From contig CAXXLQ010000004.1 in NCBI GenBank assembly GCA_963668695.2, forward strand, positions 2,112,001-2,176,000: a stretch of DNA of 64,000 nucleotides, given 5' to 3'. The DNA comes from Vicinamibacteria bacterium (GTDB lineage: Bacteria > Acidobacteriota > Vicinamibacteria > Marinacidobacterales > Marinacidobacteraceae). The notes beneath the pieces were generated by a model, which saw nothing but the letters and a program-made list of their open reading frames with translations, had not been told where the DNA came from and searched no databases. The translations under genes were made by a program, and so were the position numbers. The number at the start of each line of letters is the position of its first letter. Within the stretch, counting starts at the first letter, position 1. Below are positions 1,260-52,148 of the stretch, piece by piece.

Positions 1260-1460
1260 CGCGAGCGCTGGGCCGTTCTCCCGGTGGAGCCCTTCAGACC
1301 GGCACTGCGGCCCGCAGGGCCGCGAAACCGCGTACGGCCGAGCGAGAAGAAGCGCGGGGACGGCTTGGAACGCCGGCCTCCGGCCGGCACCGCGCGGGAG
1401 CGCGAAACCAGCGCCGATGACGCTGCCGCCTGCTGGCGTGAGAGCGCCTTCTCCAGCCCC
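1260..1460. repeat. Modular GC-rich intergenic repeat (family C). Other approximate patches: 4600-4960, 10010-10330, 17380-17470, 19980-20110, 23297-23520, 26526-26700, 34920-35120, 41420-41520, 48830-49040, 51900-52130
   Basis: Recurrent blocks CCCTTCAGACCGGCA, GCGAAACTCCC, AAGCGCGGGGACGGCTTGGAACGCCG and GCGCGGGAGCGCGAAACC in variable order and orientation. Confidence 0.75.
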
Positions 1461-2313
1461 AGCGGGTACGGCGCCCCTTCGAACCGCATACCGAAAATCC
1501 CTGGACTCCGGACGGACTCGTCGTCCGCTCGAACGTCAACACTCACGCACCCGACAGCTTCACGGGTTGATTTCCACCACGGGAACGACGACCAGGCTCC
1601 CCCAAAAATCGGCAGTGGAAAAGAGTCCAAATCGCCACTGTCAACACAAAACGCAACACCGGATTACAGGCCGTGTAACGTCGGCGTGTCACTTACGACA
1701 GTCACGCCGCCCAGCCCGGGGCGTGCCGCGGCGGGGTCCGTCACCCGACCCGGGGACGGCGTTGGCGCGCTCGGCTGAACACGTTGCGCATTGATCGCGA
1801 CGGCGGGTGACGCTGCCCTACCGGGCGATGAAAGCATGGCCGCCTCCAGGCCGCACTCGTCTCGCCGCTCTTCCCGGAGCTCTACGGGATCCTCTTCGCC
1901 CTCCTGGCGAAGACGGCCTGAGACGCCGGCCCGCGGCCGCTGACGGTGGCTGACTGCGGAAGCGACGACGCCACGCTCACCGGGGACACGGAGGCCCGCC
2001 GACACCGCACACCCCAACCCCTCGATTGTCGGGCGCGTTCCGCCCCGAGGCGGCTCCCGGCCGTCACCGCGCGCCCAGACGCGCCGATTCGTACTCGGGC
2101 CCGCGACGCGGCCCTCCGCGTGTTCCTGGGGCCGCTGAGAGCGGATCAGAGGGCCGGCGCTCCCGGGCCGCGAGAGAGCCGGGCGGAGCGGCACCGCAGG
2201 AAGGAACCGTTGCAATTGCCGCGGGAACCTACCTAGCCGCGCCGGCGTGCGGCGGGCTAGTTCTCGCCGGGACGAAGCTCGCCGGTTTCCTCGTTGTCCC
2301 CGGCGGCGTTGTC

Positions 2314-2655
2314 CTACCGGCGGCGGTTCTTCGCGGCGATGAACTCCTCGCGGCGCTTGTCAACCCGCGCCATGACTTCGGGAATTACATCGCCTTTTAG
2401 CTCCGACACGAAATGTCCAAGTCCTTGATCCGGCGTTTCGTTCGCTGGAGCGTTTTGGTTAACTGGCGCATTTCTTCCGGCGTAGCGCCCCGCATATCCA
2501 AGGGTTCTTGGCAGCGCTTCATGATTCTTTCTATCGCTTGATACGGCGTCGTAGATCAGGGTAGTCGCTACTAGCACTAGCAGGGATTCCCGGGCTTCGT
2601 ACGGCTCTTGGGTTGGATGTCCCTTTCTGCCTTTCCGTTTTGGGCGAATGGCCAT
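2314..2655 (-). CDS. Hypothetical protein (lower-GC patch)
   Basis: ATG at 2655, 113 aa, visibly lower GC than flanks; no family recognised. Confidence 0.35.
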   Translation of the reverse strand: MAIRPKRKGRKGHPTQEPYEARESLLVLVATTLIYDAVSSDRKNHEALPRTLGYAGRYAGRNAPVNQNAPANETPDQGLGHFVSELKGDVIPEVMARVDKRREEFIAAKNRRR

Positions 2656-2779
2656 TGGTGGTGTCCTCCTGCACAAGGTCAGCAACAGGGTAGTGGGCCC
2701 GCGCTCGGGCTGCGGCGGCGGTCCGCGGTCCGCCCCGCTTTGGGGCGCCATGCTAACTCCACGGGCTGGAGTTGGTCCA

Positions 2780-4502: not shown

Positions 4503-5144
4503 TCGGCGGAACGCGGTTCCGCCCGCGTGCGGCGGGCTGCCGGCCCCCACCCGGAGAAACCCGCATGATCGGGTCCGCCCGTTCACCCCGCCCGCATGAA
4601 AAAGGTGATGCAGCACTCACGTTGGCCGGGCCCGGCGTCACCGAAGCAGGTTTCGCGCTCCCGCGCGATGCCGGCCAGAGGCCGGTGGCCAGTTCTCCCG
4701 GTGGGGGCCCGCTGTCGTGCACCGTCTTGGCCCCAGAGGTACGCGCCGAGAAGAGAGCCATCCCGGCGGTTGGGGTCTGCCGGTTGGGGTCTCTGCCGCC
4801 GCGGCCCTGCGGGCCGCTGTGCCGGCCCCCACCGGGAGAACTGGCCGGAGGTCGGCGTTCCAAGCCGTCCCCGCGCTTCGGCTCAGTCAGCTAGACGCGG
4901 TTCCGCCCGCCTGCGGCGGGCTGCGCCGGGCTGAAGGGCCCCACCGGGAGAACTGCCCAGCGTTCCCTGCCTCTGCACTGGCGTGCCGGTGTGAGGCCGG
5001 GGTTCCCAGCCTCTGCACTGCCAGACGAACTGAGCCGTACATAGAAAACACCCGCCGGGGCGGGTGTCACGGGGAGCGACGATTGCCGCTCCCCGTGGGG
5101 TTCCGGCCGATTTTGGCCGGGGTCAGGTGATCGTCAGGTAATCG

Positions 5145-8800: not shown

Positions 8801-8801
8801 C

Positions 8802-9911: not shown

Positions 9912-10339
9912 GGGGACCAACGATACGCCCTCGGAAGGCGCGGAGTGTTTCCGGCAGGGGGAGCCGTGAGCGGTTGCCGTCCAGCATCCGGAGAGCGTGC
10001 GGCACTGACGTTGGCAGAGGGCAGCGTCATCGGAGCTGGTTTCGCGCTCCCGCGCGATGCCGGTCGGAGGCCGGCGCTCCGCTGTCGCGCGCCGTGCGGG
10101 TGAGTGGCGGAGGGAGTTTCGCCCGCTGTGCGGGCGATGCCGGTCTGAAGGGCCCCACCGGGAGAACTGGCCAGCGCTCCTGACGTGCGCCGTGCGGGTG
10201 AGTGGCGGAGGGAGTTTCGCCCGCTGCGCGGGCGATGCCGGCGATGCCGGTCTGAAGGGCTCCACCGGGAGAACTGCCCAGCGCTCCAAGCCGTCCCCGC
10301 GCTTCTTCCCGGTCAGCGGTACGCGGCTTCACTACCCGC

Positions 10340-13176: not shown

Positions 13177-14436
13177 GTGACAACCACGTCGCGAAAGCGC
13201 GTCGCCAGGGTCAAGCTGACCCTGACCAAGCGAACGGTCGAGGCCCTGCAGCCCGCCGAGAAGCCCTGGATCGCTTGGGACGACAAGCTGACCGGCTTCG
13301 GGGTTCGCGTCCAGCCCTCCGGCACCAAAGCCTTCGTCGTCAACTACCGGGTCGGACCGGGAGGGCGGAGAGCTCCCAACAAACGCGTCGTCATCGGCCG
13401 TTACGGCCTGGTTGCGCCCGATCAGGCGCGGCGCCTCGCGCAGGAAATCCTGGGCCGGGTCGCCGGAGGCGCCGACCCCGCGCAGGAGCGCGCGAACCGC
13501 CGCGGCATGCCGACCCTCGCCGAGGCCTTCGACGATTACCTGGCCGCGAACCCCACGAGGAAGTCCAGCACCGAGACGCTCTACCGCGGCCAGATGCGCT
13601 ACTGCCTCGGCGACTGGCTCTCACGGCCGCTCGACACGATCACCCGCCGGGACGTGGAGGCGCGCTTCCACCGGATCTCCGAACGGCACGGCTGGGCGGT
13701 GGGGAACCACGCGACCTCCCTGCTGCGGTCGGTGTACCGGAGGCCGTGCGTGGATTTCGAGGGCCTTCGCAACCCCGTCGAGCTGTGGCTCGCCGGCGGC
13801 GGGCGCTACAACCGCACGGTGCGCCGGCGCATCGGGCCCCCGGCGGAGCTGCTGCCGCGCTGGCGCGCGGGCATCGAAGCCGAGGTGCTGGTTCCGGCGA
13901 CGCGGGACATCTTCTGGCTGGGGATGTACACCGGCATGCGCCGGGGCGAGATCCTGACCCTGCGCTGGGATCGGGTGAATCTCGCGGGGCGTATCCTGCG
14001 GGTCGAGGAAACCAAGACCGGAGAGCCGCTGGAACTTCCCGTTACGCGTCAGTTGGCGGCCATCTTCGAGCGGCGGCGGGTTGATGCCGCGGGGTCGAGA
14101 TCGCGGCCCCGGGGCTGGGTGTTTCCGTCCGCGAACAGCGCGTCCGGCCACATCGAGGAGCTTCAGCATCTCTATGACCGCATCGGAGCGGCGGCGGGAA
14201 CGAAGTTCTGGTTCCACGGCTTGCGGAACGCCTTCATCACGGTGGCGGAGCGCGACCTGATGCTGCCCCGCTCGCTCACCAAACGGCTCGTCAACCACGC
14301 GAGGCGGCGCGACGTGACGGAAAGTTACGCCGCCGAGTGGACCGTGGAACAGCTTCGCGAACCCGCCCAGCGGGTCGCGGACCGGATCGACGAGCTGATC
14401 CACGCCGCCGACGACGGGTCCGCGGCGCGCGGCTGA
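13177..14436 (+). CDS. Tyrosine integrase with N-terminal arm-DNA-binding domain (DUF4102/Arm-DNA-bind_3 type)
   Basis: LTKRTVEAL..WDDKLTGFGVRV..GTKAFVVNYR; catalytic R (TGMRRGE), K (ETKTG), HxxR (HGLR), H (VNH) and Y (TESY). Confidence 0.93.
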   Translation: MTTTSRKRVARVKLTLTKRTVEALQPAEKPWIAWDDKLTGFGVRVQPSGTKAFVVNYRVGPGGRRAPNKRVVIGRYGLVAPDQARRLAQEILGRVAGGADPAQERANRRGMPTLAEAFDDYLAANPTRKSSTETLYRGQMRYCLGDWLSRPLDTITRRDVEARFHRISERHGWAVGNHATSLLRSVYRRPCVDFEGLRNPVELWLAGGGRYNRTVRRRIGPPAELLPRWRAGIEAEVLVPATRDIFWLGMYTGMRRGEILTLRWDRVNLAGRILRVEETKTGEPLELPVTRQLAAIFERRRVDAAGSRSRPRGWVFPSANSASGHIEELQHLYDRIGAAAGTKFWFHGLRNAFITVAERDLMLPRSLTKRLVNHARRRDVTESYAAEWTVEQLREPAQRVADRIDELIHAADDGSAARG

Positions 14437-15200: not shown

Positions 15201-15435
15201 ACAGCCTGTGGTGAAACCCACGTGAGCGCCGAGGCCGGGGAGGCCCAGTTCTCCCGGTGGGGCCAGTCCTCCCGGTGGGGGCCCGGCTGACAAGGCGCGT
15301 GAGGGAGGAATACCTGGTGTATTTCGACCGAAACGCAACGATGAGCGGCGCGCAGCGACGCGGTTCAGCCGGGATGGATCGCCGGCCGAGCCCCCACCGG
15401 GAGAACTGGGCCGCGTCGGTTTTGCCACAGGCTGT
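15201..15435. mobile_element. MITE (family A), copy 1
   Basis: Terminal IR ACAGCCTGTGG...CCACAGGCTGT, TA on both sides, no ORF. Confidence 0.85.
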
Positions 15436-15452: not shown

Positions 15453-16667
15453 TTGAAGAGCATCCACAGCAAGAGCATCCACCGCATCCGCCTGGACGGC
15501 TTCCTTTCCTTCGCTCCGGGATCCCCGGCCCTGGAACTCGGGCCGCTCAATGTGCTGATCGGGCCGAACGCATCGGGCAAGTCCAATCTCATCGAAGCCT
15601 TCGAGCTTCTCCGGTCCACACCGACCGATTTCGCAGCCGCCATCCGGGATGGGGGTGGGCCGCGCGAATGGATCTGGAAGGGCCAGCCTCGCGTAGGTTC
15701 CGCGACCATGGAAACGGTCCTGGCCAAGGAAAATCCGGCCCGGGATCCGCTGCGCCATCGGTTGGAGTTCTCGACCGTCCAGAACCGCGTCGAAGTGCTC
15801 GACGAGGCCATTGAGGAACTCGAACCCCGTCCCGGGGAAAAGGAACCGTTCTTCTACTACCGGTTCCAGCACGGCAACCCGGTAATCAACATCCGCCAGT
15901 CCGAGGGCGATGATCGGCGGGCCGAACGTCGCCTGCGGCGTGAGGACTTTCGGTCCACTCAGTCGGTGCTGGCCCAAAGGAAGGATCCGGATCTATATCC
16001 GGAGGTGACCTGGGTTGGAAACCAATTCCGCGAGATGCAGCTCTTTCGGGAATGGACGTTCGGGAGGTTTGTGGCACTGAGGACCCCGCAGCCGGCGGAT
16101 CTCCCGGGGGATCGCCTGTTGCCAAATGCAAGCAACCTCGCTCTCGTCCTGAACGAGATCGAGCATCGGGATGGGACTCACTTCAACGCGGCGTTGCGGC
16201 GCTTCTTTCCCCGGTTCAAGCGGATGACAACGCGGGTGGCAGGCGGGACGGTCCAGTTCTACCTGCATGAATCGGATATTGACTCACCGATTCCAGCCAC
16301 CCGGCTCTCCGATGGAACGATCCGGTTCATCGCGATCCTGGCCATTCTGCTCGCGCCCGATCCCCCGTCCTTCGTGTGTATCGAGGAACCGGAACTCGGG
16401 CTCCATCCGGACGCCGTTGCGCAAATGGCCGAGCTTCTGGTTGAGGCGTCGTCGCGCATGCAACTCGTGGTGACGACGCACTCGGAATCTCTTGTCTCGG
16501 CGCTCACCGAATGTCCCGATGCAGTCATCACCTGTGAGCGGCCCGGCCCCGCGACCACGCTACATCGCCTGGATCCGGGCCTGGATCCGGAGCACCTCAA
16601 GGGCTGGCTCAACGACTACAGTCTCGGCGATCTTTGGGGGATGGGCGAACTCGGGGCCAATCCGTGA
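15453..16667 (+). CDS. ABC/SMC-like AAA ATPase (AAA_15/AAA_21 type)
   Basis: NVLIGPNASGKSN Walker A; LSDGT signature; IEEPELGLHP Walker B/D-loop; VTTHS H-loop. Confidence 0.92.
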   Translation: MKSIHSKSIHRIRLDGFLSFAPGSPALELGPLNVLIGPNASGKSNLIEAFELLRSTPTDFAAAIRDGGGPREWIWKGQPRVGSATMETVLAKENPARDPLRHRLEFSTVQNRVEVLDEAIEELEPRPGEKEPFFYYRFQHGNPVINIRQSEGDDRRAERRLRREDFRSTQSVLAQRKDPDLYPEVTWVGNQFREMQLFREWTFGRFVALRTPQPADLPGDRLLPNASNLALVLNEIEHRDGTHFNAALRRFFPRFKRMTTRVAGGTVQFYLHESDIDSPIPATRLSDGTIRFIAILAILLAPDPPSFVCIEEPELGLHPDAVAQMAELLVEASSRMQLVVTTHSESLVSALTECPDAVITCERPGPATTLHRLDPGLDPEHLKGWLNDYSLGDLWGMGELGANP

Positions 16668-19930: not shown

Positions 19931-20201
19931 GGAGAGCGCTTTGTCTTCCGACGCGCGCTTCACGGAAGGCAGCTGTACGCGTTTCGCGGTCTTCGGCCGC
20001 GGTGCTGGCCAGAAGGGCCCCACCGGGAGAACTGCCCGGCGCTTCAAGTCCCCGCGCTTCTTCTGGGTTAGCGATGGGAGTTTCGCGGCCTGCGGCCGCG
20101 ATGCTGGCCAGTTCTCCCGGTGCTGGCCAGAAGATCGGCGCTCCATCCCCGCGCTTCTTCGCGGGCGGCGTTCCCGTGCGTTACCCGCCCGGCATGCGGT
20201 A

Positions 20202-20760
20202 ACAGCCTGTGGTGAAACCCACGTGAGCGCCGATGCCGGCCAGTTCTCCCGGTGGGGGCGAGGCCCAGTTCTCCCGGTGGGGCCAGTCCTCCCGGTGGGG
20301 GCCCGGCTGACAAGGCGCGTGAGGGAGGAGCCCCCACCGGGAGAACTGGCCCGGGTGTATTTCGACCGAAGCGCAACGATGAGCGGCGCGCAGCGACGCG
20401 GTGAACAGCCGGTGGTGGAACCCGCGTGAGCGCCGAGGCCGGCGAGGCGCCCGCCTGACAAGGCGCGTGAGGGAGGAATACCTGGGTATTTCGACCGAAA
20501 CTGGGCCGCGTGGGTTTCGCACCGGCGGTTTGGCCGGGATGGATCGCCGCCGAACCCCCACCGGGAGAACTGGGCCGCGTGGGTTTCATCACCGGCTGTT
20601 TGGCCGGGATGGATCGCCGGCCGAGCCCCCACCGGGAGAACTGGGCCGCGTGGGTTTCATCACCGGCTGTTTGGCCGGGATGGATCGCCGGCCGAGCCCC
20701 CACCGGGAGAACTGGGCCGCGTGGGTTTTCGCGGTTGTTTGGCCGGGATGGATCGCCGGC
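20202..20760. mobile_element. Composite/nested MITE-A with internal ~70-bp tandem amplification
   Basis: Left end at 20202, second left end near 20404, units starting at 20501, 20570, 20641 and 20712. Confidence 0.8.
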
Positions 20761-20908
20761 CGAGTGAACCCCGGAACTGGGCGGCGCGTCCGGGCGAGGG
20801 GCGGTACGCGCTTTCGCGGCGCTGTCAGGCCGCGGCGCCGGCCAGTTCTCCCGGTGGGGGCGTGAACCCCGCCGTTCCCGTTCTTCGCGCAGTGCGTTAA
20901 CGTGGGGA

Positions 20909-23296
20909 TTGATGATCCGCCTCGCGTTTTCCTGTCTGATTGTCTTGCTCGCGCTCGGTGGGTGCTCGGCCGGGTCCGGGCCGTCCACCACGCCGCCTAC
21001 CCGGGCCGCGCCGTCGCCCCCGCCTGCTCCGGCTCCCGAGCCGCCCCCCTCGTCCGAGCCGGTCCCGGCGCCCCGCGACCTGCCGGCAGCGCCGGACGAC
21101 ACCTGCGTGACGATCCACACCGGCGAGTGCGTGCCGTCACCGCAGTTCAACGCCATGGCGACCGAGCTTGCCGAGGATTACGCCGCGGACCGCAATTTCG
21201 AGGCGCAGTGGGGTCTCCACGCGATCAACGCCCACGTCGCCTACGGGCACGTGAACCTGTTGGAGGGTCCGGACGTCGCGCCGGGAACCGGCGTGACCAT
21301 CGGGGTGATCGACACCGGGATTGACGCCGAACACCCGATCTTCGAGGGCAAGACGATCCACCAGGAGTTCCTGTTCGGCGCCGTCGGGGACACCGGGGAA
21401 GAGGGATCCCACGGCACCGCGGTGGCGAGCATCGCCGCGGGAGGACAAAACGACAATCCGAACGCCGCCCACGGGGTCGCCTGGGGCGCGGACCTCGCCG
21501 TGTGGGCGATCCCGCTCGGCAGTCCCGACAACGTCTACGACCCGATCACGATCGAAGAACTCGCCGAATCGGACGAGGGGTTCGCCGAGATCTTCAAGTC
21601 GGTCTTCGCCTGGCGCGATGCGGGAGGGGACCTCGACATCCTGAACCTGAGCTTCGGCTACGAGGGCATCATCGACCGCTACGCCGAGGAGGACCTCCGC
21701 GCGAGCTTCTCGGAGATGATCGCGACCCTGGCCCAGGCGGACGCCGCCGAGAAGACGATCCTCGTCTGGGCGGCGGGAAACCAGAACGGCGACCGCTGCG
21801 GGTTCGGCGTCGAACACTGCGTGGACGGCCGGGTCGAGGCCGTCTCGGTCGGCATCCTCCCGGGGCTCCTCGCCTACATGGAGGAACTCCAGGGGCACTC
21901 CATCGCGGTGGTGGCGCTGAGCCCGGACGGCGGCGGGATCGCGAGCTTCTCGAACCGTTGCGGCATCGCCTCCGACTTCTGCATCGCGGCGCCCGGCGAA
22001 GAAGTGAGGTTCGCCTACTACGGGCCCGACGACGAAGTGGACGGCGTCCGGGGCTACGGCGAGGGGGGCGGAACCTCGTTCGCCGCCCCAATGGTGTCCG
22101 GCGGGCTCGCGGTGATGAAGCACCTCTTCCGCGACCAGCTCGCGAACGAGGAGTTGGTCACCCGGCTCTTCCTGACCGCCGACAACACCGGCATCTACGC
22201 CGACCGCGACATCTACGGCAACGGCCGGATGGACCTCGGCGCCGCCACCTCGCCGGTGGGAGTGCTCGACGTGCCCATCACGACCGGGCTGGCCGCCATG
22301 GCGCACGCGTCGCTGAACTCCACCGGGCTGCGCTTCGGCGCCGCGTTCGGCGACGGATTCGGGGAGGCGTTCGGAGACGGCGAGCTGATGGCCCTTGACG
22401 ACTACGGGGCCCCGTTCTGGTACGGCCTGGACAACTTCACGGCGACCAGCGACGGCCCTGCGATGTCGGCGCGCCTGAGGACCTTCCTGGGGCCGGGGTC
22501 CACGCCCGGACTGGCGGTGGCCACCGGCGGCGGGGGCGCCTCGGGTTCGAGCGCCGGAACGCTCGGGATGACGGCGGGCCTTCTCCGGATGCCCACCGCG
22601 GCCGGGAACGGACACCTCGCGCTCGCCGAGGGTGCGGTCATGGTGAGCGCCTTCGAAGCGGGCGGCCTCTCGGCCACTGCCTTCACCACCGGGCCGCTTC
22701 GCCCCTTCATGCCGGCGACCGGCGCGGCGCTGGGCTGGCGGCCGGACGGGCTCCCGGTGGGCTTTACGGCGGGGTGGATCTCGGAGCGGGAGACGATGCT
22801 CGGCAGCATGGGGCTGGGGGCGTTCGGCAGCCTCTCGGCCGGGACCGCCTTCTTCGGCTTCGACGGGGGCTTGGATCTCGGCGGGTGGAACCTCGGGGCG
22901 AGCGGCGAGTTCGGGGTGGTGAACCCGGCAGCGCAGGGCGGAATGATCCAGGAGATCTCCGCGCTCGCGACCAGCACCTTCGCGGTTCACGCAAGCCGCG
23001 CCTTCCAGGGCCGGAGCGCGCTGCATTTCTCGCTGTCGCAGCCGCTCCGGGTGGAAAACGGCTGGGCTTCGCTGACGGTGCCGAATGCCCGGACGAAACG
23101 GGGCGAAGTGCTCCACCGCTCGCTCCGCGCCGACCTCGCGCCCGGGGAGCGCCAGCTCGACCTCGCGGCGCAGTGGAACCGGGCGCTGCCGCTCGGCGAG
23201 TTCCGCCTGGGGGCGATCTGGAGCCACCGGCCCGGCCACCGGGATGTGCTGGGGCCGCAATTCGCGCTGCTCTCCGGCTGGCGCTGGACCTTCTAA
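20909..23296 (+). CDS. Lipidated S8 subtilase with putative C-terminal beta-barrel (autotransporter-like), copy 1
   Basis: Lipobox LGGC; DTG, HGT, AAGN and GTSFAAP catalytic motifs; amphipathic C-terminus ending GWRWTF. Confidence 0.9.
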   Translation: MMIRLAFSCLIVLLALGGCSAGSGPSTTPPTRAAPSPPPAPAPEPPPSSEPVPAPRDLPAAPDDTCVTIHTGECVPSPQFNAMATELAEDYAADRNFEAQWGLHAINAHVAYGHVNLLEGPDVAPGTGVTIGVIDTGIDAEHPIFEGKTIHQEFLFGAVGDTGEEGSHGTAVASIAAGGQNDNPNAAHGVAWGADLAVWAIPLGSPDNVYDPITIEELAESDEGFAEIFKSVFAWRDAGGDLDILNLSFGYEGIIDRYAEEDLRASFSEMIATLAQADAAEKTILVWAAGNQNGDRCGFGVEHCVDGRVEAVSVGILPGLLAYMEELQGHSIAVVALSPDGGGIASFSNRCGIASDFCIAAPGEEVRFAYYGPDDEVDGVRGYGEGGGTSFAAPMVSGGLAVMKHLFRDQLANEELVTRLFLTADNTGIYADRDIYGNGRMDLGAATSPVGVLDVPITTGLAAMAHASLNSTGLRFGAAFGDGFGEAFGDGELMALDDYGAPFWYGLDNFTATSDGPAMSARLRTFLGPGSTPGLAVATGGGGASGSSAGTLGMTAGLLRMPTAAGNGHLALAEGAVMVSAFEAGGLSATAFTTGPLRPFMPATGAALGWRPDGLPVGFTAGWISERETMLGSMGLGAFGSLSAGTAFFGFDGGLDLGGWNLGASGEFGVVNPAAQGGMIQEISALATSTFAVHASRAFQGRSALHFSLSQPLRVENGWASLTVPNARTKRGEVLHRSLRADLAPGERQLDLAAQWNRALPLGEFRLGAIWSHRPGHRDVLGPQFALLSGWRWTF

Positions 23297-26525: not shown

Positions 26526-26771
26526 GGAGCACCGCAGGGCAAGGAGCGCCGGGCACTTCTCCCGGTGGGGGCTAGGAACGCTGGGCAGTCCTCCCGGTGG
26601 GGCCCTTCAGACCGGCATCGCTCCCCACAGGGGAGCGAAACTCCCAAACTCAGCCACACCCCTGGTTGGGACCCATCCGAGGGCCGCGAAACTCCCATCC
26701 CCAACACCCTCACGGCGCGCGACAGCGGAGCAAGTCGCTGTAACGGCCTTGCAATTGACACAATACCGACC

Positions 26772-29511: not shown

Positions 29512-30804
29512 ATGATGAGTTTGTTTTGGGAACGGTTCCGGAGCCCCCGCTGGGGCCGGTTCCGCGGGCGCCGCTGGGCGGCGTTCCTCTTCCTTGCCGT
29601 TTTCGCGGGGTGGACCCCGGAGCGCGCCCAGGGCTACCGGTACGTTGACTTCCTGCAGACCCACGTCATCACCGAGTCTTCGTGGCCGCCGTTCCTCCGC
29701 TTCGACCGGAGCGTCTGGCCCCCCGGAGAAGCGATCGAGATTCGCATCGTCCGCGATTCCGCCTTCAGCGAGGCGCTCTACGATCGGTTCGCCCGCCTGG
29801 TCGAAACGGCCCTCGGGCATTGGTCCTCGGTGGCAACGGCGGACCTCCGGTTCACGGTCGCCTTCGCCGGCGCGGAGACCTACGAAGCCGACGAGGGCGG
29901 CTTTTAACAGCCTGTGGTGAAACCCACGCGGCGTTCGAGCGGCGATCCATCCCGCCTGAACCGCGCCGCTTTGCGGCGCTCTGCGTTGCGTTTCGGTCGA
30001 AATACACCAGGTATTCCTCCCTCACGCGCCTTGTCAGCCGGGCGCCTCCCCGCTCTCGGCGCTCACGCGAGTTCCACCACAGGCTGTTAAGTGCGCCTCG
30101 TTGACGAGGACAGGTCGTCGGTGGCGCGAGGAGGGGTGATTCGCCTCCATCTCGAGGACCAGGACCCGCCCGCCTGGGTGGGGTGTCGGGTGACGGTTCC
30201 CGCCCACGCGTTGAGTAGTCCCACCGCCTTCCGGCTCCAGGTCATGGTCCACGAGTTCGGCCACTGCCTGGGACTTGGCCATACGGCGTCGTATCCCGAT
30301 TTTCGATTCCGCGACCGGGTTCGCGCGGCCGAGTTCGGCGTGGATCCGGTCATGTCCTATGGGTGGTCCCTCCACCTGGATGAGATCGCCGAACAGACCC
30401 GCCCGGACCTGATCACCCCGGACGATGCGGCCGGGATCTCGCTCCTGAGGCCGCGGCCCGGATGGCTGGAAGAGACCGGCAGGATCTGGGGCGTGGTCCT
30501 TGGAGGCGACGGCGCCCCGGTCCGCTACGGGGTGGTCATCGCCTTCCGGGTGGAGGACGGACGCGCGGCGAGCGCGGGGGTGAGCGGCTTCACCGACAAC
30601 CAGGGGTTCTTCTCCATTGCGGGGCTCGGGCCGGGCAGCTACGCCGTCCAGGCGCACCCCCTCCAGACCGGGACGGCGCATCCCGACATCTTGCCGGAGG
30701 CGGTGACCGATTTCCGGTACACCACCGCGGTCGAAGCCATCGAGGTACGCGCCGGGGCGCGTACCGGCCCGCTCACCTTCGTGGTGCAGCCGAAGGAGAA
30801 CTGA
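29512..30804 (+). pseudogene. Matrixin-like metalloprotease interrupted by a MITE
   Basis: 5' half ends EGGF-TAA at 29907; 3' half resumes at 30091 with HEFGHCLGLGH; colinear with 8802-9911. Confidence 0.85.
29908..30086. mobile_element. MITE-A, minimal copy lacking the 18-bp inserts
   Basis: CAGCCTGTGGTG...CACCACAGGCTG flanked by TTAA on both sides. Confidence 0.92.
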
Positions 30805-34912: not shown

Positions 34913-35141
34913 GGCGGGGAGTCGGCAAGGAGCGCCGGCCAGTTCTCCCGGCGAGGGCCTTCAGACCGGCATCGCTCCCCGCAGGGAAGCGAAACTCCCG
35001 TCGTTGTTCCCTGTATGGCACCGCAGAGGCCAGGAGCCGCATGCCGCGAAACTCCCGTCGCTACGTTCGCCCATAGCTGGGACCCCCATCCGCAGGCCGC
35101 GAAACTCCCGTCGCCAGTCGCGTGAGAGACTCCCGGCAGCC

Positions 35142-36464: not shown

Positions 36465-36718
36465 GCAGCCCGTGGATGAAGTGACGTGAGCGCCGAGACC
36501 GGCCAGTTCTCCCGGTGGGGGCGAGGCGCCCGGCTGACAAGACGCGTGAGGGAGGAGCCCCCACCGGGAGAACTGGCCCGAGTGTATTCCGACCGAAACG
36601 CAACGCAGAGCGACGCGAAGCGCCAGTTCTCCCGGTGGGGGGGCGGTTCAGCCGGGATGCATCGCCGGTCGAGCCCCCACCGGGAGAACTGGGCCGCGTG
36701 ACTTTGTCCACAGGCTGC
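36465..36718. mobile_element. MITE-A copy
   Basis: GCAGCCCGTGGA...TCCACAGGCTGC; right end abuts the stop codon of 36718-37176. Confidence 0.85.
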
Positions 36719-38056: not shown

Positions 38057-38276
38057 GCAGCCTGTGGTGAAACCCACGCGGCCCAGTTCTCCCGGTGGGG
38101 GCTCGGCCGGCGATCCACCACCGGCTGTTCACCGCGTCGCTTCGCGCCGCTCATCGTTGCGCTTCGGTCGAAATACACCCGGGCCAGTTCTCCCGGTGGG
38201 GGCTCCTCCCTCGCGCGCCTTGTCAGCCGGGCGCCTCCCCGGCCTCGGCGCTCACGCGGGTTCCACTACAGACTGC
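38057..38276. mobile_element. MITE-A copy
   Basis: GCAGCCTGTGGTG...CACTACAGACTGC. Confidence 0.85.
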
Positions 38277-40523: not shown

Positions 40524-40740
40524 ACAGCCTGTGAACAAAGTCACGCGGCCCAGTTCTCCCGGTGGGGGCTCGGCTGGCGATGCATCCCGGCTGAACCGCG
40601 CCTCTTCGAGGCGCTCATCGTTGCGCTTCGGTCGAAATACACTCGGGCCAGTTCTCCCGGTGGGGGCTCCTCCCTCGCGCGCCTTGTCAGCCGGGCGCCT
40701 AGCCAGCCTCGGCGCTCACGCTACCTTGTCCACAGGCTGT
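40524..40740. mobile_element. MITE-A copy between gcvT and gcvH
   Basis: TAA-ACAGCCTGTG...CACAGGCTGT-TAA. Confidence 0.9.
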
Positions 40741-41386: not shown

Positions 41387-42441
41387 AGTAGAGGCTGCGC
41401 CGTGCGCCTTCGCGGGACGCAGGGCAGGGAACGCAGGGCAGGGAACGCCGGGCAGTTCTCCCGGTGGGGCCCTTCAGACCGGCACCGCGGCCCGTCGGGC
41501 CGCGAGATCGCGTACGTCTGAGCTGCGTGAAGCGCGGCCGGGGCAGGGAACGCCAGCCATCGCATAGGGGGCCGGCACAGCCCGCCGCAGGCGGGCGGAA
41601 CCGCGTATCGCCGAGTTGCGGGATCTCCCGCACCGCCGTTCCTGCTGAGCTACGCGACGACGCACGCACCACCCCGATGTTTGGCGCTGTTCCCTTTTGC
41701 TGCGCTGTCGCGCAACGGTGCTGATCCCCTACACGCGCACAGGTACAGGGCCGCCACCAGCGGAACGAACGCCCGTTTCCCGGCTCGCGCCGGCGTTGCC
41801 ACCCGGAGGAAAACGGTCAACGGGACGCTCCAACTACGGCAGATTCATTCCGTTCTTGGGGCCCGACGCCTCGTCTCTTCCAAGATGCGGGATTGTGCTG
41901 TGAATTCCCAAGTGTACGGGTTGTGTCACTTGGGCGACCAATCGCGGTCTGGGGATGGGTTGGCGGTGCTCCGTTCCCGGTCCGACGCGTCGTTCTGTGC
42001 CGACTCCGGCGCGCCGGCGGTCTTTGGCGACACTTTTGTCGGCGGAAGGCTTCAGGACCAGGGCGACGGACCCAGTCGGGACCACATCCGACGAACCAGG
42101 TTTCGGCCTGGGGGACGGGAGGAAGCGGTTCTCGGGTGGCCGGCTGGCGGGAAACCCCCGTACCCGAAAGAGCCTTGTTTCCCGGTGCGCGCTCTTACGG
42201 AGAGCAACGATGCGCGTTTCGACTGCCGTCGGCGGTCGGTGAAGGCCCCCACCGGGAAGACTGGCCGGCGTTCCCCGAGATGCCGGTTTTGAGAGCGGAG
42301 CGCCCGCCCCCCTCCCTGATAAAATCCCGGGTCCGGCTGGATGGGCAATGGGCTGGACGATAGTCGGCGGTCAGCCCGGCGGGTCGGAGTTTCCCGGCGC
42401 CGTTCCGGCACTTTGCTGACCCCCACTTCCCCTCAAGTTCC

Positions 42442-45408: not shown

Positions 45409-45502
45409 CCCCGTGGAGAAAGCGCCCCGCACCGGCCACGGGACGGCAACTGCGCCGAAGCCGGCGGTTCTTCCGCGTGCGGGGCGCTTTCCCCACGGGC
45501 AA

Positions 45503-45683
45503 GCAGCCTGCAGACAAAGTCACGCGGCATTCGAGCGGCGATGCATCCCGTCTGAAACGCCCCGCTTCGCGTGGCTCATCGTTGCGCTTCGGTCGAAATA
45601 CACTCGGTATTCCTCCCTCGCGCGCCTTGTCAGCCGGGCGCCTCGACGCTCTCGGTGCTCACGCGACTCTGTCCACAGGCTGC
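45503..45683. mobile_element. MITE-A copy lacking the 18-bp inserts
   Basis: GCAGCCTGCAGAC...GTCCACAGGCTGC-TAG. Confidence 0.85.
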
Positions 45684-45812
45684 TAGTGGTGCAAATCGCT
45701 ACGCGATTCGCACCATCTTTTTCTGTGGGGAGGGGAATCCCCTCCCCACGCCCCTCCCCCGCGGCGCTTTGCGCCGCGAATGATGGGGTCAGAGTTTCAT
45801 CACCGGCTGCTA

Positions 45813-46228
45813 ACCGCCGGTGGAAAAACCCACGCGGCCCAGTTGCTGTGAAAATGCAGTTGCGCCGAGCCCCCAACAGGGCGGATGGCGCGCAGGCACG
45901 GGAACGCCGACCTCTGGCCAGTTCTCCCGGTGGGGGCCGGCACGCGCGGGAGCGCGAAACCTGCGCTGGTGACGCCGAGTTCTGCCGACGTGAGTGGCGC
46001 ACCACCTTTTCATGCCGGCGGGGTGAACGGGCCGACCCGATCATGTGGGCTTCTCCCGGTGGGGGCTCGGCCGGCGATCCATCCCGCCTCCGCTTCGCTC
46101 CGTTTCGGTCGAAATACACCCGGCCCAGTTCCCCCGGTGGGGGCTCCTCCCTCGCGCGCCTTGTCAGCCGGACCCCCAGCGGGAGAACTGGCGCTCTCGG
46201 CGCTCACGCGAGTTCCATCACCGGCTGC
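45813..46228. mobile_element. MITE-A copy interrupted by ~200 bp of other repeat DNA
   Basis: Left arm to ~45844, resumes ~46051, ends CACCGGCTGC-TA. Confidence 0.7.
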
Positions 46229-48217: not shown

Positions 48218-48226
48218 GCTCGTCGT

Positions 48227-48803: not shown

Positions 48804-49285
48804 GGGTGACGGTGCGCCGCCTGGAGAACGTGGCGCACAGGCCCGGGAACGCTGGGCAGTTCTCCCGGTGGGGCCGTTCAGACCGGCACCGCTGCCCGCA
48901 GGGCAGCGAAAGGCGCAGAGCTCGACTCCGGAGTGGTGTCCTTCTCGGCACGGACTTCAAGCAGGGAAGGTGTCGCACCGGCCCGGGAACGCTGGGCAGT
49001 TCTCCCGGTGGGGCCGTTCACACCGGTACCGCCCCGCGCAGCGGGGCGAGACAGCGTATCCCTTCTGACCCGCGTTTGAGGACACCTCCGCACCACCATT
49101 CATACCGTAACGTCGCCCCGCGTATGTCGTTATTTCACAAACACCTAAGAGGTAATCTCAGGTAGGGAACCCCATCAATCGGAAGTCGTCCGACTGTCCA
49201 TTTCTGTAACCGGAATCGCTGCGCTCTTCCGTATAGTCATCCGCTGGCTCCGTCGCGCCGCGGCCGGTGCGGAGGTTTCTCTCTC

Positions 49286-51616
49286 ATGCATCGCCGAGCG
49301 CCGGTTCCCTGCCGTTTGCTGTTTCGGGGTCCGCTGGCGGCCGTCCTCATCCTCGGCGGAATGGTCCCGGCCAGCGTCGCCGCGCAGACGACGCTCTCGG
49401 GAACGGTCGTATTCGACGGGAACGACGAACCGGCCCACAACGCGGAGGTCGTTCTCCTCGGCACCGACCAAGTTACCCACACCGACGAAGAGGGCCGCTT
49501 CGAGTTCACCGTGGCAAAACCGCACGCCGCCTACGTGGTGCACGCGGACCTTGGCTTCCTGAGCGGCATCCTGACGGTCCTCGCGGACGAACACCCAACC
49601 GACTCGATCCGGCTCGAAGCGCCCGTCGTGCTCCGGGAGGATCACATTCACGAGCGGGTCATGGTGAATTCGCCCGCCGGGACGCTGTCTCTGTTCGAAA
49701 TGCACGGCTCGGTGCGTGTGCTGGAGGGCATGGATCTTCAGGAAAAAACGGCCTTCGATGTCGCCGGAGTGGTGGAGGGAACTCCGGGGGTGGCGCTCAG
49801 CAGCGCCGGCCCCGGCGCCACCCGCCCCATCGTGCGGGGACTCGACGGGGACCGGGTGGTCGTGCTGGAAGACGGCGTGCGCACGGGAGACCTGGGGAGC
49901 CAGTCCCCCGACCGCGGACTGCCGCTCGACCCGCTCCAGGCGGAACGGGTGGAAGTCATCCAGGGACCGGCGATCCTTCTCTACGGACCCTATGCGATCG
50001 GCGGCGCCGTGAATGTCATTTCGATGGGCGCCCACCTCGCGCACGGACCTCCGCGCGGCTTCCGGGGCGTGGGGAGGGGGGACCTCTCTTCCAACGGCCG
50101 GGGACGCCGGGGCGGAGCCCGGGTCATGGCCGCGGGCGCCGGCTGGTTCGCCTGGGGCGGGGCGACCACGGTCCGCAACGACGCGTATTCCAGTCCTGTC
50201 GGCCTGGTGCCGTTGGCCGAATCCTTGATGAACCGCGGCGAGGCCGGTTTCGGGCTCTTCAGCCAACGGACCTGGCTCTCCGGGAGCGTGCGTTTGGAGG
50301 AGAACGCCCGGCTGCTTCCCTTCACCAGCGAGTTCCTCGGGGATGACGTCGAGGAGTCGATCGATTTCACCGATGTGGTGGTGGACGCGGCGCGCCGGCA
50401 GGTTCGCGGCGATTTCGGGATCCGGGATCTGGATTTCGCGTTCCCGGAAGCGGAGTTCACGCTCCGTTTCAGCGATTTCGACATGGACGAGAGGGGACCG
50501 CCCGCTTCCGGCGGCATCCCGGGAATCTCCACCCACTTCGAGAACCGTTCGCTGGTGTTCCGGGGCGAGTTGAAGCGGCCGTCCGGCCGCTGGACCGGCA
50601 CGGTCGGACTGTGGGGCGACCGGCGCGACTACGACGGGTTCGGCCAGGACGCCCGAGCGCCGAGCACCCGCCAGAACGCGCTGGCGGCCTTCGCCTACAA
50701 CGAGATCCAGGCGACCAACCGGTTCGCGCTGCAGTTCGGCGCCCGGCTCGAACGAAACGCCTATGACGCGGGAAACCGCCCGGAATCCGCGGGGCGCGTG
50801 GCGAGCGGAGCATCGGCAAACACATACGAGGCCCGCGCGGTCGTGAACCGGGATTTCCTCGGGGCGTCGGGAAGTGCGCGCGGCCGCCTGACGCTGAACG
50901 AAACCACCGTCCTGACGGGAACGGCGAGCCTCGCCACGCGCAGTCCGTCCATCAAGGAGCTCTACGATTTCGCTCCCAGCATCGCGACCCGAGGCTTCCA
51001 GATCGGGAATCCGAACCTCGCTTCCGAACGTCCGTTTGGCCTTGAGTTGACGCTGAGCCGCACCGCGGAGCCTTTTTCGGGCACGGTCAGCGTCTTCCGC
51101 AACTCCATCGCCGACTTCATCTTCGCCGGGACCACCGGGGATGCGCTGGGCGTCTATCAGGTCATCGAGTTCCGGCAGTCGGACGCCCTCTATCAAGGGT
51201 TCGAAGTCGAGGCGCACCTGGAGGTCGGTTCCGCCGAGGTCGTGGCCGATGTTGCCTATGTGGATGCGCGGCTCACCACGACCGGGGAATACCTCCCGCG
51301 GATCCCCCCGCTCGGCGGCGCCTTGGAGCTCAAGATACCCGCCGGTGACTACCGGCTCTCCTCGCGGCTGCGCTGGGCTGCCCGCATGGATCGGGTGCAC
51401 GTCGGCGAAACGCCCACCGACGGGTACGGAGTGCTGAATCTCACCGCTTCCCGCGCCTTCGTCGGCCTCTTCGGGCACCACACGATCTCGAACGTCTCGC
51501 TCGAGCTGTTCAACGTCACGAATGCCGTGGCCCGCCCCCACACGCACCTGCTGAAGGCGTTGATGCCCGAGATCGGCCGGGGACTCCGGATCAGCTATTC
51601 GCTCGGGTTCTTCTAG
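49286..51616 (+). CDS. TonB-dependent receptor
   Basis: Signal peptide, carboxypeptidase-like N-domain, plug RPIVRGLDGDRV..EVIQGPAILLYG..AIGGAVNVI, GNPNL.SE, C-terminal Phe. Confidence 0.93.
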   Translation: MHRRAPVPCRLLFRGPLAAVLILGGMVPASVAAQTTLSGTVVFDGNDEPAHNAEVVLLGTDQVTHTDEEGRFEFTVAKPHAAYVVHADLGFLSGILTVLADEHPTDSIRLEAPVVLREDHIHERVMVNSPAGTLSLFEMHGSVRVLEGMDLQEKTAFDVAGVVEGTPGVALSSAGPGATRPIVRGLDGDRVVVLEDGVRTGDLGSQSPDRGLPLDPLQAERVEVIQGPAILLYGPYAIGGAVNVISMGAHLAHGPPRGFRGVGRGDLSSNGRGRRGGARVMAAGAGWFAWGGATTVRNDAYSSPVGLVPLAESLMNRGEAGFGLFSQRTWLSGSVRLEENARLLPFTSEFLGDDVEESIDFTDVVVDAARRQVRGDFGIRDLDFAFPEAEFTLRFSDFDMDERGPPASGGIPGISTHFENRSLVFRGELKRPSGRWTGTVGLWGDRRDYDGFGQDARAPSTRQNALAAFAYNEIQATNRFALQFGARLERNAYDAGNRPESAGRVASGASANTYEARAVVNRDFLGASGSARGRLTLNETTVLTGTASLATRSPSIKELYDFAPSIATRGFQIGNPNLASERPFGLELTLSRTAEPFSGTVSVFRNSIADFIFAGTTGDALGVYQVIEFRQSDALYQGFEVEAHLEVGSAEVVADVAYVDARLTTTGEYLPRIPPLGGALELKIPAGDYRLSSRLRWAARMDRVHVGETPTDGYGVLNLTASRAFVGLFGHHTISNVSLELFNVTNAVARPHTHLLKALMPEIGRGLRISYSLGFF

Positions 51617-51621
51617 CGCGG

Positions 51622-51879
51622 GGTCGAGCGTTCCGGAAGGGGGGCACCGACCCCCGCAGGTGTTCGTTATTGGTTTGTTTGAAGGTGAGCCCCCCTTCCG
51701 AACCGCCCGGCGCTTCGCGCCGCAATCGAAACTCCCTTGCGCGCCTTCGGCGCACAGCGGCGAGTTCCGATTGGTCGTTACCTTCTTGTGAAAGGGGGGC
51801 GGTAGCCCCCCTTTCACACTTTCCCCCCGAAAACGCGGGCAGCGAACGGAGTTCGCTGCCATCAGTTTTCTGCGCGCTC
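51622..51879 (+). repeat. Structured repeat family B
   Basis: Colinear with 48227-48485. Confidence 0.85.
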
Positions 51880-52148
51880 GGCTGAGCGCCGCCAACAGAA
51901 CGTGGTGCGCTCGGCAGGGAACGCCGACCTCCGGGCAGTCCTCCCGGTGGGGCCCGGCACCGCTGCCCGACAGGGCGGCGAAACTCCCGTCGCTATTCCC
52001 CGCGTGGCACCGCGATGAATAGGAGCGCCGGTCTTCAGACATCGCGGCCGAAGGCCGCGAGACTCCCATCGTTGTTCCCTATATGGCACCGCGGTGAATA
52101 GGAGCGCCGGTCTGAAGACCGGCGCTCCCGTTGTACGATCCGGCCGCC

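Follow-up and report, generated by a model that had tools for sequence, protein, structure and literature searches.

A precisely inserted 18-nt unit dispersed through the repeats of a family of sponge-associated Acidobacteria

The 64,000-nt stretch of DNA analysed here (the window) raises the question of whether an oligonucleotide of only 18 nt may behave as a mobile insert. A sequence-only reading had described some 35–40 copies of an 18–19-bp unit in both orientations and had taken it for a minimal mobile insert or a recombination site. In agreement with that estimate, the unit CCAGTTCTCCCGGTGGGG was found 39 times on both strands of the window at no more than two mismatches (21 exact copies, 11 with one mismatch and seven with two), as against zero expected from shuffled window sequence (n=100); the copy at position 1272, with three mismatches to the unit, was left out of the 39. 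The genome-wide k-mer count that had been proposed as a check gave 1631 copies at ≤2 mismatches in 4.1 Mb, 1288 of which are exact, and these group into 1480 arrays with 140 doublets. The unit is non-palindromic, is inserted in either orientation, shows no replichore strand bias in the genome, and is among the shortest insert-like repeats seen in bacteria.

Two repeats act as hosts, namely a MITE of ∼190 nt (MITE-A) and a REP-like two-hairpin repeat, which is the second host repeat and the commonest home of the unit. Within MITE-A, exact units occupy site 1 at 15392–15409 (−), 38083–38100 (+) and 40550–40567 (+), and site 2 at 20332–20349 (−), 38184–38201 (+) and 40648–40665 (+), with a one-mismatch copy at site 2 at 46125–46142 (+). 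The tandem doublet that had been noticed at 15245–15280 (+) stands at site 3, a TT variant followed by a TC variant in the context GAGGC^GCCCGG. One MITE-A copy carries three units at 20240–20300 (+), the first at site 4 (20240) and a doublet at site 3 (20265 and 20283), another carries four exact units at 36503–36692 (36503 +, 36559 −, 36623 + and 36675 −), and three units 71 nt apart at 20556–20715 (−) form part of an array in which a MITE-A fragment and the unit are tandemly repeated. MITE-A copies with sites 1 and 2 empty lie at approximately 29905–30090 (+) and at 45500–45686 (+), the latter joined across the whole copy by contigs of three other samples. REP-like repeats harbour an exact unit at 10153–10170 (−), two TC-variant units (23324 and 23357) at 23324–23374 (+), two diverged units with two mismatches each at 26553–26602 (+), units with two mismatches at 34939–34956 (+) and 51935–51952 (+), and the GCAG form at 4939–4956 (−, one mismatch), 41452–41469 (+, in the first hairpin), 48856–48873 (+) and 48996–49013 (+); the REP-like repeat at 1375–1400 (+) has the empty site CCTCCGG^CCGGCAC. 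The other units of the window are exact at 4689–4706 (+), 4827–4844 (−) and 20842–20859 (+), have one mismatch at 20018–20035 (−) and 46174–46191 (−), and have two at 10260–10277 (−), 20108–20125 (+, with a decayed 3′ end) and 42247–42264 (−, upstream of gcvP).

Every filled/empty pair cited earlier was re-read in the sequence. Both sites that are filled in the MITE copies at 38057 and 40524 are empty in those at 29908 and 45503, and the site at 20428 is empty where 36503 is filled. Certain details required amendment: the pair of 1375 (empty) and 45918 (filled) was confirmed, but 45918 shows a net gain of 19 nt instead of 18; at MITE site 2 both states are real, yet TAT is exchanged for G+unit+GC, and at site 1 the base after the G that follows the unit is C in the filled allele and T in the empty one. 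Across the genome, an exact 12+12-nt empty site was found elsewhere for 183 of the 1480 arrays, and in the control, where the removed 18-nt frame was shifted by 3–9 nt, for only 0–1. Since the matches all but vanish on frame shift, the boundaries of the unit are exact, and its presence or absence concerns an exact 18-nt block. Neither target duplication nor terminal repeats, including the terminal inverted repeat whose lack had been claimed, appear in the flank logo or in the filled/empty pairs, and at the site GAGGC^GCCCGG there is no space for a target duplication around the unit.

The target consensus called for by the earlier reading is CGCCGG^..^GCC, with short G/C strings common to the copies. 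Insertion sites are G/C-rich and of the type S-G^G-C, the left flank being merely S-G-S, and the conserved block extends to about S-CCAGTTCTCCCGGTGGGG-G-C (19–21 nt). The flanks of the 1419 arrays of the main contig fall into 126 clusters, 72 of them singletons, and copies drawn from other genomes and from metagenome contigs (n=164) form 64 clusters. The earlier view of a precise insert is borne out, with many unrelated sites and no fewer than two families of host repeat, MITE and REP-like repeat. One site even holds the unit in both orientations, 2 nt apart. The 18-mer lacks self-complementary arms, and no hairpin was found in the unit alone; six contexts folded as DNA gave z-scores from −1.4 to +1.8, the sole recurring stem being formed between the CCGG of the target and the internal CCGG of the unit.

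Copies in the window genome are nearly all intergenic. Seven crude unit-bearing ORFs were scanned, of which four had no Pfam match, and in the three with a Pfam domain the unit, judged from its offset in the ORF, is placed upstream of the matched domain. As far as these ORFs go, the claim that intact coding sequences are spared holds for this genome, but not for two sister species. One copy lies inside CoaBC of genome G010, and mfd of G012 contains a clean in-frame insertion of 18 nt relative to its orthologue, the frame staying open and the UvrB_inter and CarD_TRCF_RID domains being present.

The MITE, with ∼600 genomic copies, carries the unit at four fixed sites (316, 304, 180 and 148 arrays). 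Site 1 contains exactly 18 nt in 303 of 607 copies and is empty in 282; the figures for site 2 are 295 and 282 of 598, and all four combinations of the two states occur (169, 149, 78 and 58 of 454 copies). The unrooted MITE tree needs at least 116 and at least 96 changes of state, and 35 independent pairs lie on its supported branches. The inverted doublet is the replicating form of REPINs; here, convergent pairs spaced 49, 56 and 52 nt apart (n=148, 63 and 28) result from the fixed positions within the MITE, and single units come and go independently. In the same MITE copies the per-base divergence is 0.002–0.004 in the unit and 0.03–0.11 in the adjoining 18 nt, the unit being 7–60 times better conserved than the surrounding MITE sequence.

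The state of a MITE site is almost completely linked to the bases adjoining the unit, which at two sites differ from those of the empty allele. Because switches between filled and empty always come with 1–3 adjoining base changes, among paralogues as well as co-assembled strains, they point to short-patch gene conversion. The suspected polymorphism between strains is borne out by alternate haplotigs (97.6–99.7% identity), in which ATA is exchanged for GC+unit+C at two tandem, otherwise nearly identical MITE copies, and 18 nt are gained at two further loci; every strain-level polymorphism seen lies at a standard MITE site and none at a new one. Direct unit copies serve as endpoints of deletions, both in the strain comparison and at locus L104, so the idea of a recombination site stands as far as a recombination substrate is concerned. 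Most of the ∼1600 copies are hence secondary, multiplied by the carrier MITE, and about 1000 of them represent hitch-hiking and gene conversion among MITE copies, not separate insertions. Paralogous MITE copies have exchanged filled and empty alleles together with the bases adjoining each, and so have strains, probably by short-patch gene conversion.

An adapter or assembly artefact had been named as a possible refutation, and it is dismissed because 21 of the 41 related genomes, all from other assemblies, contain the unit. The exact 18-mer is present in all 15 other genomes of the genus (15–747 copies each) and in four further genera, i.e. in five genera of one family, whereas none of 16 genomes of two neighbouring families contains it; in genus g6 it is absent from three of the four genomes searched. 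The five genera also have a minor TC variant in common, and the bases adjoining the unit vary by lineage (S..GC in the window genome, often A..GG in G010 and G012). The unit is native to this one family of uncultured, sponge-associated Acidobacteria. In two other genera, MITE homologues carry the unit at other sites, and the sites filled in the window genome are empty. Together with the more than 100 flank contexts and the 18 nt gained by mfd, these new MITE sites establish that primary insertion of the unit is real.

As to the agent, we give about an even chance to a reading in which the 18-mer forms the unchanging core of an ultra-short interspersed element, introduced by a trans-acting enzyme and subsequently spread by hitch-hiking and gene conversion. 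Primary insertion would be the work of a sequence-specific trans-acting enzyme with single-stranded or hairpin DNA as its substrate. The unit enters S-G^G-C sites as a precise block, in either orientation and without target duplication, its targets being mostly loops or stems of other repeats (REP-like, ∼190-nt MITE) and rarely genes; the MITE has multiplied resident units at its four fixed sites, and gene conversion would swap filled and empty alleles among MITE copies and strains. The window genome would since have lost the enzyme and retained the copies. A RAYT-type HUH transposase may be regarded as the leading candidate, because most sister species possess one and the REP belonging to it is where the unit is most often at home. 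However, known HUH transposases need a hairpin in cis, and a unit without a hairpin of its own speaks against RAYT. No enzyme was found tied to the unit, and the confinement of strain-level polymorphism to standard MITE sites and the lack of a replichore strand bias also count against this reading. Given the lineage-specific and allele-specific adjoining bases, copying of a donor with its flanks fits as well as cut-and-paste.

Of the 15 other genomes in the genus, 13 gave Y1_Tnp matches; the window genome gave no RAYT/Y1_Tnp match. The RAYT gene flanked by the motif that had been looked for is therefore lacking there, and in sister species RAYT is flanked by the REP-like repeat instead (on both sides in two of the four loci read), these repeats being without the unit in three of the four loci and with it only at L158. 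In low-copy species the unit occupies the first hairpin of the REP-like repeat at ∼10 of 30 loci. RAYT presence does not track unit number, because no Y1_Tnp match was obtained in G000 (1566 copies), G004 (776), G018 (259) and G019 (70). A more far-reaching version is offered only tentatively, namely that this family of Acidobacteria has an unrecognised means of writing a fixed 18–19-nt oligonucleotide into single-stranded or hairpin DNA at S-G^G-C sites, the insert involving neither hairpin nor terminal repeat nor target duplication; the agent would be either a RAYT with cargo between two of its cleavage sites or a novel enzyme. If true, the unit would be the smallest transposable unit known in bacteria.

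The window also provides the one lead for an excision footprint, which had been among the initial proposals. At 45839–46064 (+), exactly at MITE-A site 1, lies a 226-nt copy of element E (CCAGTT...TTCTCCCGGTGGGG) with a whole unit inside it (45918–45935). E has a length of 150–380 nt, and its tips, CCAGTT and CTCCCGGTGGGG, are both tips of the unit; on the main contig, about 21 5′ and 25 3′ ends of E have these tips in common with the unit and lie at the same types of site. In this genus, REP-bearing E elements of 190–360 nt split the unit. The unit might then be what excision or internal deletion leaves behind of E, the true mobile element. This seems improbable, as the 5′ end of E, which 13 of the 15 further genomes of the genus possess, was missing from all 12 genomes of six other genera, and the 3′ end from all five genomes of three other genera, so that E is limited to one genus and the unit is not. 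In each of those five, a 3′ part of the unit that does not belong to a complete unit turned up just 0–2 times, despite up to 259 units. Neither a series of intermediate sizes (apparent forms of 90–102 nt are the 5′ part of E followed by a whole unit) nor an autonomous E was found. A simpler reading is that the genus-specific E inserted into pre-existing units at CCAGTT^, splitting them. Nor is there much left of the suggestion that the unit is ancestral in its host repeats and was repeatedly deleted. The short G/C runs that bound it and the deletions between direct copies suit this explanation, and state counts on an unrooted tree cannot tell gain from loss; it is nevertheless largely refuted by the empty sites and differently placed units of MITE homologues in other genera, by the mfd insertion, by the same unit standing in unrelated repeats and at one site in both orientations, and by a divergence 7–60 times below that of the flanks.

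A less easily dismissed, though still unlikely, route is copying without a dedicated enzyme, by microhomology-mediated template switching or gene conversion where replication stalls at the hairpins of GC-rich repeats, with existing copies as template and abundance feeding itself. Sites in the hairpin loops and stems of REP-like repeats and MITEs, the G/C strings shared by the flanks, the lineage-specific bases that travel with the unit, the conversion-like flips among paralogues and strains, and the lack of a candidate enzyme in the window genome all agree with it. Exact boundaries across independent contexts do not, and none of 1092 abundant 16-mers exceeds the unit in two-sided flank diversity, albeit by a small margin; the identical 18-mer and the same TC variant in five genera, moreover, need a sequence-specific constraint. 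Another reading is a protein-binding or uptake-type signal under selection at its many loci, with the spread by insertion incidental. The invariance of the unit across genera, far beyond that of its surroundings, and its non-palindromic, mostly intergenic copies in both orientations are in keeping with a signal, but 15–747 copies within one genus and three g6 genomes of four without any are hard to fit to a housekeeping role, the copies arise as block insertions and not by point mutation, and we know of no protein that binds the unit, which makes a signal quite improbable. The templated writing proposed earlier, by a reverse transcriptase or an IS110 bridge-RNA recombinase encoded elsewhere, is hardly credible. 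The window genome (91.7% complete) has no RVT_1 match, and neither TnpB nor a serine recombinase was found in it. Its single IS110, like that of G004, does interrupt the first hairpin of a REP-like repeat; the IS ends, however, are unlike the unit, and 7 nt separate the insertion point from the usual place of the unit in the repeat. To our knowledge, an 18-bp duplex cannot serve as a circular donor, which also argues against the IS110 route.

Like MITEs, the unit is non-coding, multi-copy, nested and polymorphic in presence, but it lacks terminal inverted repeats and target duplication and has about one tenth of the usual MITE length. It also lacks the sub-terminal hairpins and fixed 4–5-nt left target of IS200/IS605-type non-autonomous elements, and no match to their Y1 TnpA was obtained in the window genome. 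Enterobacterial BIME-type mosaics combine short modules in several arrangements within intergenic clusters, whereas here a single invariant module is found in genes as well as at numerous positions in host repeats that are intact apart from it. Rickettsia palindromic elements (∼100–150 nt) sit in frame in conserved protein genes without breaking them; the mfd insertion of G012 resembles this, although the unit has 18 nt and is not palindromic. With the DNA uptake sequences of Neisseriaceae and Pasteurellaceae, which originate in point mutations and are frequent within genes, the unit shares an invariant oligomer common to a whole family in hundreds to thousands of copies and both orientations; it differs in arising by block insertion and in being nearly absent from genes. 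With REP/REPIN elements and their RAYT transposase (PMC3116915, PMC3337134, PMC5581495), there is a likeness in short, very abundant, mostly extragenic and lineage-specific repeats, in copy numbers varying widely among relatives, in inverted pairs at fixed spacing and in a single-copy Y1 transposase in most sister species. Those repeats, however, are imperfect palindromes with a hairpin, while the unit is not a palindrome, forms no hairpin of its own and comes or goes singly, as a block of 18 nt within other repeats; in this genus RAYT has a separate two-hairpin repeat at its flanks, and the window genome is without RAYT. ISPpu9, an IS110-family element inserted into REP (PMC8450116), resembles what is seen in the window genome and in G004, where IS110 interrupts the first hairpin of a REP-like repeat, but the likeness concerns the IS, whose ends are unlike the unit. 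Finally, the mobile GC clusters and hairpin elements of mitochondria (PMC4478555, PMC2800124) are likewise very short, G+C-rich, invasive and single or tandem, though they form hairpins and are organellar, whereas the unit is non-palindromic and bacterial.

Within the window, 39 copies of the 18-mer CCAGTTCTCCCGGTGGGG (the unit) were counted on both strands with up to two mismatches (21 exact, 11 with one and seven with two), and 100 dinucleotide-preserving shuffles of the window gave no match to it. The sequence-only reading had put roughly 35-40 copies between positions 1272 and 51955, an estimate which holds except that the copy at 1272, with three mismatches, falls outside the 39; the pairs of filled and empty sites which it cited were all confirmed when the window sequence was re-read. 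The whole host assembly, G000 (4.1 Mb, 67.5% G+C, four contigs), in which the window spans C4:2112001-2176000, contains 1631 copies with two or fewer mismatches, including 1288 exact ones and 156 of a single variant, CCAGTCCTCCCGGTGGGG. Merging head-to-tail copies leaves 1480 arrays, namely 1336 singles, 140 doublets and four longer ones. In a sequence logo of 1287 exact copies, the information falls steeply beyond the block G-G-S-[18-mer]-G-C, hence the conserved entity measures 18 nt, or 19-21 nt with its near-fixed neighbours. No hairpin of the unit's own was found, the sole recurrent stem being formed by a target-side CCGG and the unit-internal CCGG, and no replichore strand bias of the copies was detected. 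When 1092 abundant 16-mers were compared for the diversity of their flanks on both sides, the unit came out on top, narrowly ahead of the MITE ends, a result that is not decisive. Other abundant short repeats with diverse flanks on the main contig, C4, include 16-mers around CTCCAGCGTGGAGTTC, CCTTTCACACTTTCCC and ACATGTCGCTCTAGCG, with 60-100 copies each. Viral contigs yielded only one exact match to the 18-mer, in an unrelated low-GC context, which by a rough estimate corresponds to the chance level.

The unit is gained as a block, without target duplication, at G/C-rich sites. For the identification of empty sites, each array (tandem copies merged) was excised, the 12 flanking bases on either side were joined, and the product was looked up in an exact 24-mer index of G000. 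An identical joined 24-mer was present elsewhere in the genome for 183 of the 1480 arrays, representing 35 exact contexts. Shifting the removed frame by 3, 4, 6 or 9 bases reduced the matches to 0-1, and shifts of 1-2 bases gave 8-20, as expected from the ambiguity of the boundary. The context GAGGC^GCCCGG leaves no space for a target duplication, and one site holds the unit in both orientations, 2 nt apart. The 1419 arrays of the main contig fall into 126 flank clusters, including 72 singletons; with each cluster represented once, the consensus of the flanks is CGCCGG^..^GCC.

Two dominant host repeats carry the unit along with them. MITE-A measures ~190 nt and is bounded by terminal inverted repeats (AACAGCCTGTGGTGAAACCCACG...); of the 1419 main-contig arrays, 316, 304, 180 and 148 are located at its four main unit sites. 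The REP-like repeat has the structure GGGAACGCCGG - hairpin 1 - CCGGCAYCGC - hairpin 2 (with variable, compensated stems) - GAAAC, and the unit resides in hairpin 1. As to the movement of MITE-A, contigs of three other samples join window position 45499 to 45687 with TTGA between them; since this allele is devoid of the MITE-A copy at 45500-45686, the MITE itself must have moved recently. Tandem arrays with a 71-nt period, composed of a MITE-A fragment and one unit, were also observed (window 20556-20715; C3:12480-13000 versus C4:3517400-3517900), the latter differing in copy number between the two haplotypes described below.

Most unit copies in G000 are secondary. MITE-A copies were located by their flanks alone, and so free of ascertainment through the unit; site 1 contained exactly 18 nt in 303 of 607 copies and was empty in 282, and site 2 was filled in 295 of 598 and empty in 282. 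Among the 454 copies scored at both sites, 169 were empty at both, 149 were filled at both, and 78 and 58 were mixed. On a FastTree tree of these 454 copies, built after removal of the units and the adjoining columns, at least 116 state changes are required at site 1 (label shuffles: mean 148, minimum 132) and at least 96 at site 2 (mean 150, minimum 136), counts which do not separate gain from loss and which lean upwards because the tree rests on ~150 columns. Supported branches alone provide 35 independent pairs discordant at site 1. The state of a site is, in addition, tied almost completely to the neighbouring bases: site 1 reads GGC[unit]GCT in 203 of 207 filled copies and GGC-GTT in 238 of 247 empty ones, and site 2 reads GGG[unit]GCTC when filled and GGT-ATTC when empty. 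Since some 100 separate clean indels would not each alter the same neighbours, two ready-made alleles appear to be exchanged among paralogues, and the scatter of filled and empty states over MITE-A copies would accordingly reflect short-patch gene conversion. Hairpin-templated copying between the MITE arms was considered and rejected, the flanks of paired units not being complementary beyond GC.

Alleles of the unit are exchanged between strains as well as paralogues. Contig C1 (144 kb) is an alternative haplotype of C4:304184-421223 (98.1-99.9% identity), and contig C3 (31 kb) of C4:3505137-3538141 (97.6-99.7% identity); G000 is therefore an assembly of two or more strains, the probable reason for its 9.3% "contamination" figure. 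All unit differences between the haplotypes fall at standard MITE sites. In two tandem, otherwise near-identical MITE-A copies, both copies have ATA at site 2 in one haplotype and GC+unit+C in the other; two further loci show a net 18-nt difference at site 3, and one locus has a singlet versus a doublet. Deletion between direct unit copies also takes place, as one haplotype difference is a deletion of ~200 nt with its endpoints in two direct GAGC+unit copies. Logan contigs of public runs break at the repeats.

Primary insertion of the unit is nevertheless real, as distinct from its secondary spread. Four species of the genus with few copies (G007, G010, G012 and G015, with 8-16 listed) were read at 30 loci in all, where the same 18-mer occupies hairpin 1, hairpin 2 (loop or arm), several MITE positions and the middle of a mini-MITE made up of two termini around it. 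In G012, the mfd gene, whose product has UvrB_inter and CarD_TRCF_RID domains, bears a clean 18-nt addition relative to the G000 orthologue, with the frame kept open and six residues gained; in G010, the flavoprotein portion of CoaBC contains a copy, within sequence that varies too much to be aligned. The initial impression that intact coding sequences are spared applies, as far as examined, to G000, where none of the units in the seven crude ORFs checked (delineated by a GC3-based filter in place of a gene finder) falls within a Pfam-supported region, but not to these sister species. In two other genera the unit is found at MITE sites that are empty in G000, and vice versa. Altogether, 164 copies from relatives and metagenome contigs form 64 flank clusters, in whose representatives the unit is followed by G in 83% and never preceded by T.

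With up to one mismatch, the 18-mer was detected in every one of the genus's other 15 genomes (15 to 747 copies; 1566 in G000) and in four more genera of the family (1 to 259 copies), and in none of 16 genomes of the order's two other families; its minor TC variant also occurs in other genera. As for the host, the window GcvP shares 96% identity with its counterpart in a MAG labelled Candidatus Marinacidobacterium and 89-90% with those of sponge-type Acidobacteria MAGs, and the public runs holding the stretch include several labelled sponge metagenome. Per-base divergence from the consensus in MITE-A copies is 0.0018 for the unit at site 1 and 0.0036 at site 2, compared with 0.108 and 0.047 (site 1) and 0.053 and 0.027 (site 2) in the adjoining 18 nt. 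Within a genome, this contrast could arise from the spread of a young allele by conversion; the identity of the 18-mer across genera could not, and requires sequence-specific constraint. The cross-genus identity is the main argument for a putative enzyme or protein that recognises the unit.

The unit is itself interrupted by a second element, E, a non-coding sequence of 150-380 nt with fixed ends, which starts with CCAGTTGCTGTGAAAATGCAGT and ends with ...GATCATGNGGGTTTCTCCCGGTGGGG. The main contig harbours ~21 of its 5' ends and ~25 of its 3' ends. E comprises one or two REP modules and a 3' hairpin, many copies have an outward-facing AGGAGG...ATG just inside the 3' end, and the site types it occupies are those of the unit. 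The copy in the window (45839-46064) is placed precisely at MITE-A site 1, and its REP hairpin houses a complete unit. The sequence of the unit is that of E's two tips, as would be expected if the unit derived from E. However, the 5' end of E was found solely in the genus of the window, its 3' end was missing in five genomes from three other genera, and in those five genomes the 3' part of the unit occurs outside the whole unit only 0-2 times per genome. Because its ends are so confined, E is regarded as an element peculiar to the genus that entered units already in place, at CCAGTT^; the reverse derivation seems less likely. No autonomous form of E was found, and the long open frames downstream of its 5' ends proved to belong to an IS110 or to host genes, or to be spurious frames of high GC. 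E 5' ends in short-read assemblies of the genus are often 70-190 nt away from the end of a contig, suggesting that a multi-copy element is close by. An Rfam search of the window returned nothing at the gathering score, with a sub-threshold Chlorobi-1 match near E.

A survey of the G000 assembly (91.7% complete) revealed no Y1_Tnp match, no serine recombinase and no TnpB-type zinc ribbon above the cut-off. Of the enzymes proposed from the sequence alone, a reverse transcriptase is disfavoured by the lack of RVT_1 in this assembly, and IS110 by the finding that its sole G000 copy has ends unrelated to the unit. This copy (C4:~482000-484000) sits inside hairpin 1 of a REP-like repeat, 7 nt away from where the unit normally lies, and an IS110 copy of G004 is at the same position. 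Six tyrosine recombinases were detected, two of them strong Phage_integrase matches, perhaps Xer-type; the four weaker ones, all of the phage-integrase type on scanning and one of them with an arm-binding domain, were dismissed as ordinary island or phage integrases. In the window, a phage-type integrase gene with an arm-binding domain adjoins a gene for an AAA_21 (AbiEii-like) ATPase (13177-14436 and 15453-16667); a MITE-A with units lies between the two, and the pair may mark the edge of a defence island. Three successive large genes, each with a subtilase (Peptidase_S8) domain, occupy 20909-29488, with repeat-rich spacers between them.

Among 28 genomes of the family, Y1_Tnp is carried by 13 of the 15 that share the genus with G000, by the single genome of genus g2 and by one of three of genus g4; G000, G004, G015, G018 and G019 gave no match, and neither did genera g3, g6 and g7. 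Genomes that have this RAYT-type transposase, a Y1 HUH enzyme, carry one or two copies, and the genes at four loci read by eye display HVHVL and YIRNNPVKAGL motifs. At two sister-species loci (L158 and L162) the REP-like repeat stands on both sides of the RAYT gene in inverted orientation, at a third (L159, also from a sister species) it stands upstream only within the stretch read, and at the fourth (L161), from another genus, other repeats surround the gene. In G010, a long tandem array of the REP-like repeat follows the RAYT gene. This flanking indicates that the two-hairpin repeat is the REP of the RAYT system in the genus. The link between RAYT and the unit is circumstantial: the REP of the RAYT is the unit's commonest home. 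Only at L158, of the four loci, does the flanking repeat contain the unit, and the presence of RAYT does not track unit number.

Allele exchange, then, would proceed by gene conversion, and the primary insertions would require a sequence-specific agent, for which RAYT is the best candidate, albeit with modest odds. The main rival to such an agent is enzyme-free template switching at hairpin-stalled replication forks, which accounts for the donor-like bases next to the unit (S..GC in G000, often A..GG in G010 and G012), yet leaves both the exact boundaries and the conservation across genera unexplained. An insertion mechanism that is truly new seems rather unlikely to underlie the unit. If the unit is truly mobilised, it would lower the known minimum size of mobile sequences in bacteria and show that a cargo needs neither a hairpin nor a terminal repeat, which would point to domesticated HUH transposases having an activity as yet unexplored, or else to an unknown enzyme, the latter of possible use in writing short DNA tags. 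Even with an enzyme-free origin, it would be a clear example from nature of how gene conversion can sweep a short block through paralogous repeats in their hundreds. In either case the unit yields 6-residue in-frame insertions in housekeeping genes, supplies deletion endpoints and helps to explain the short-read assembly breaks in these symbiont genomes.

In the paper library searched, neither the 18-mer motif (in either orientation) nor the genus name was found, and among the papers listed nothing relevant on repeats of sponge Acidobacteria came up. In its population behaviour the unit resembles a REP or a MITE. Unlike a REP, however, it has no palindrome and no RAYT flanked by the unit, and unlike a MITE it possesses neither terminal repeats nor a target duplication. 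Among the papers listed, its nearest analogues are REPINs with their RAYTs, along with the mitochondrial GC clusters and hairpin elements.
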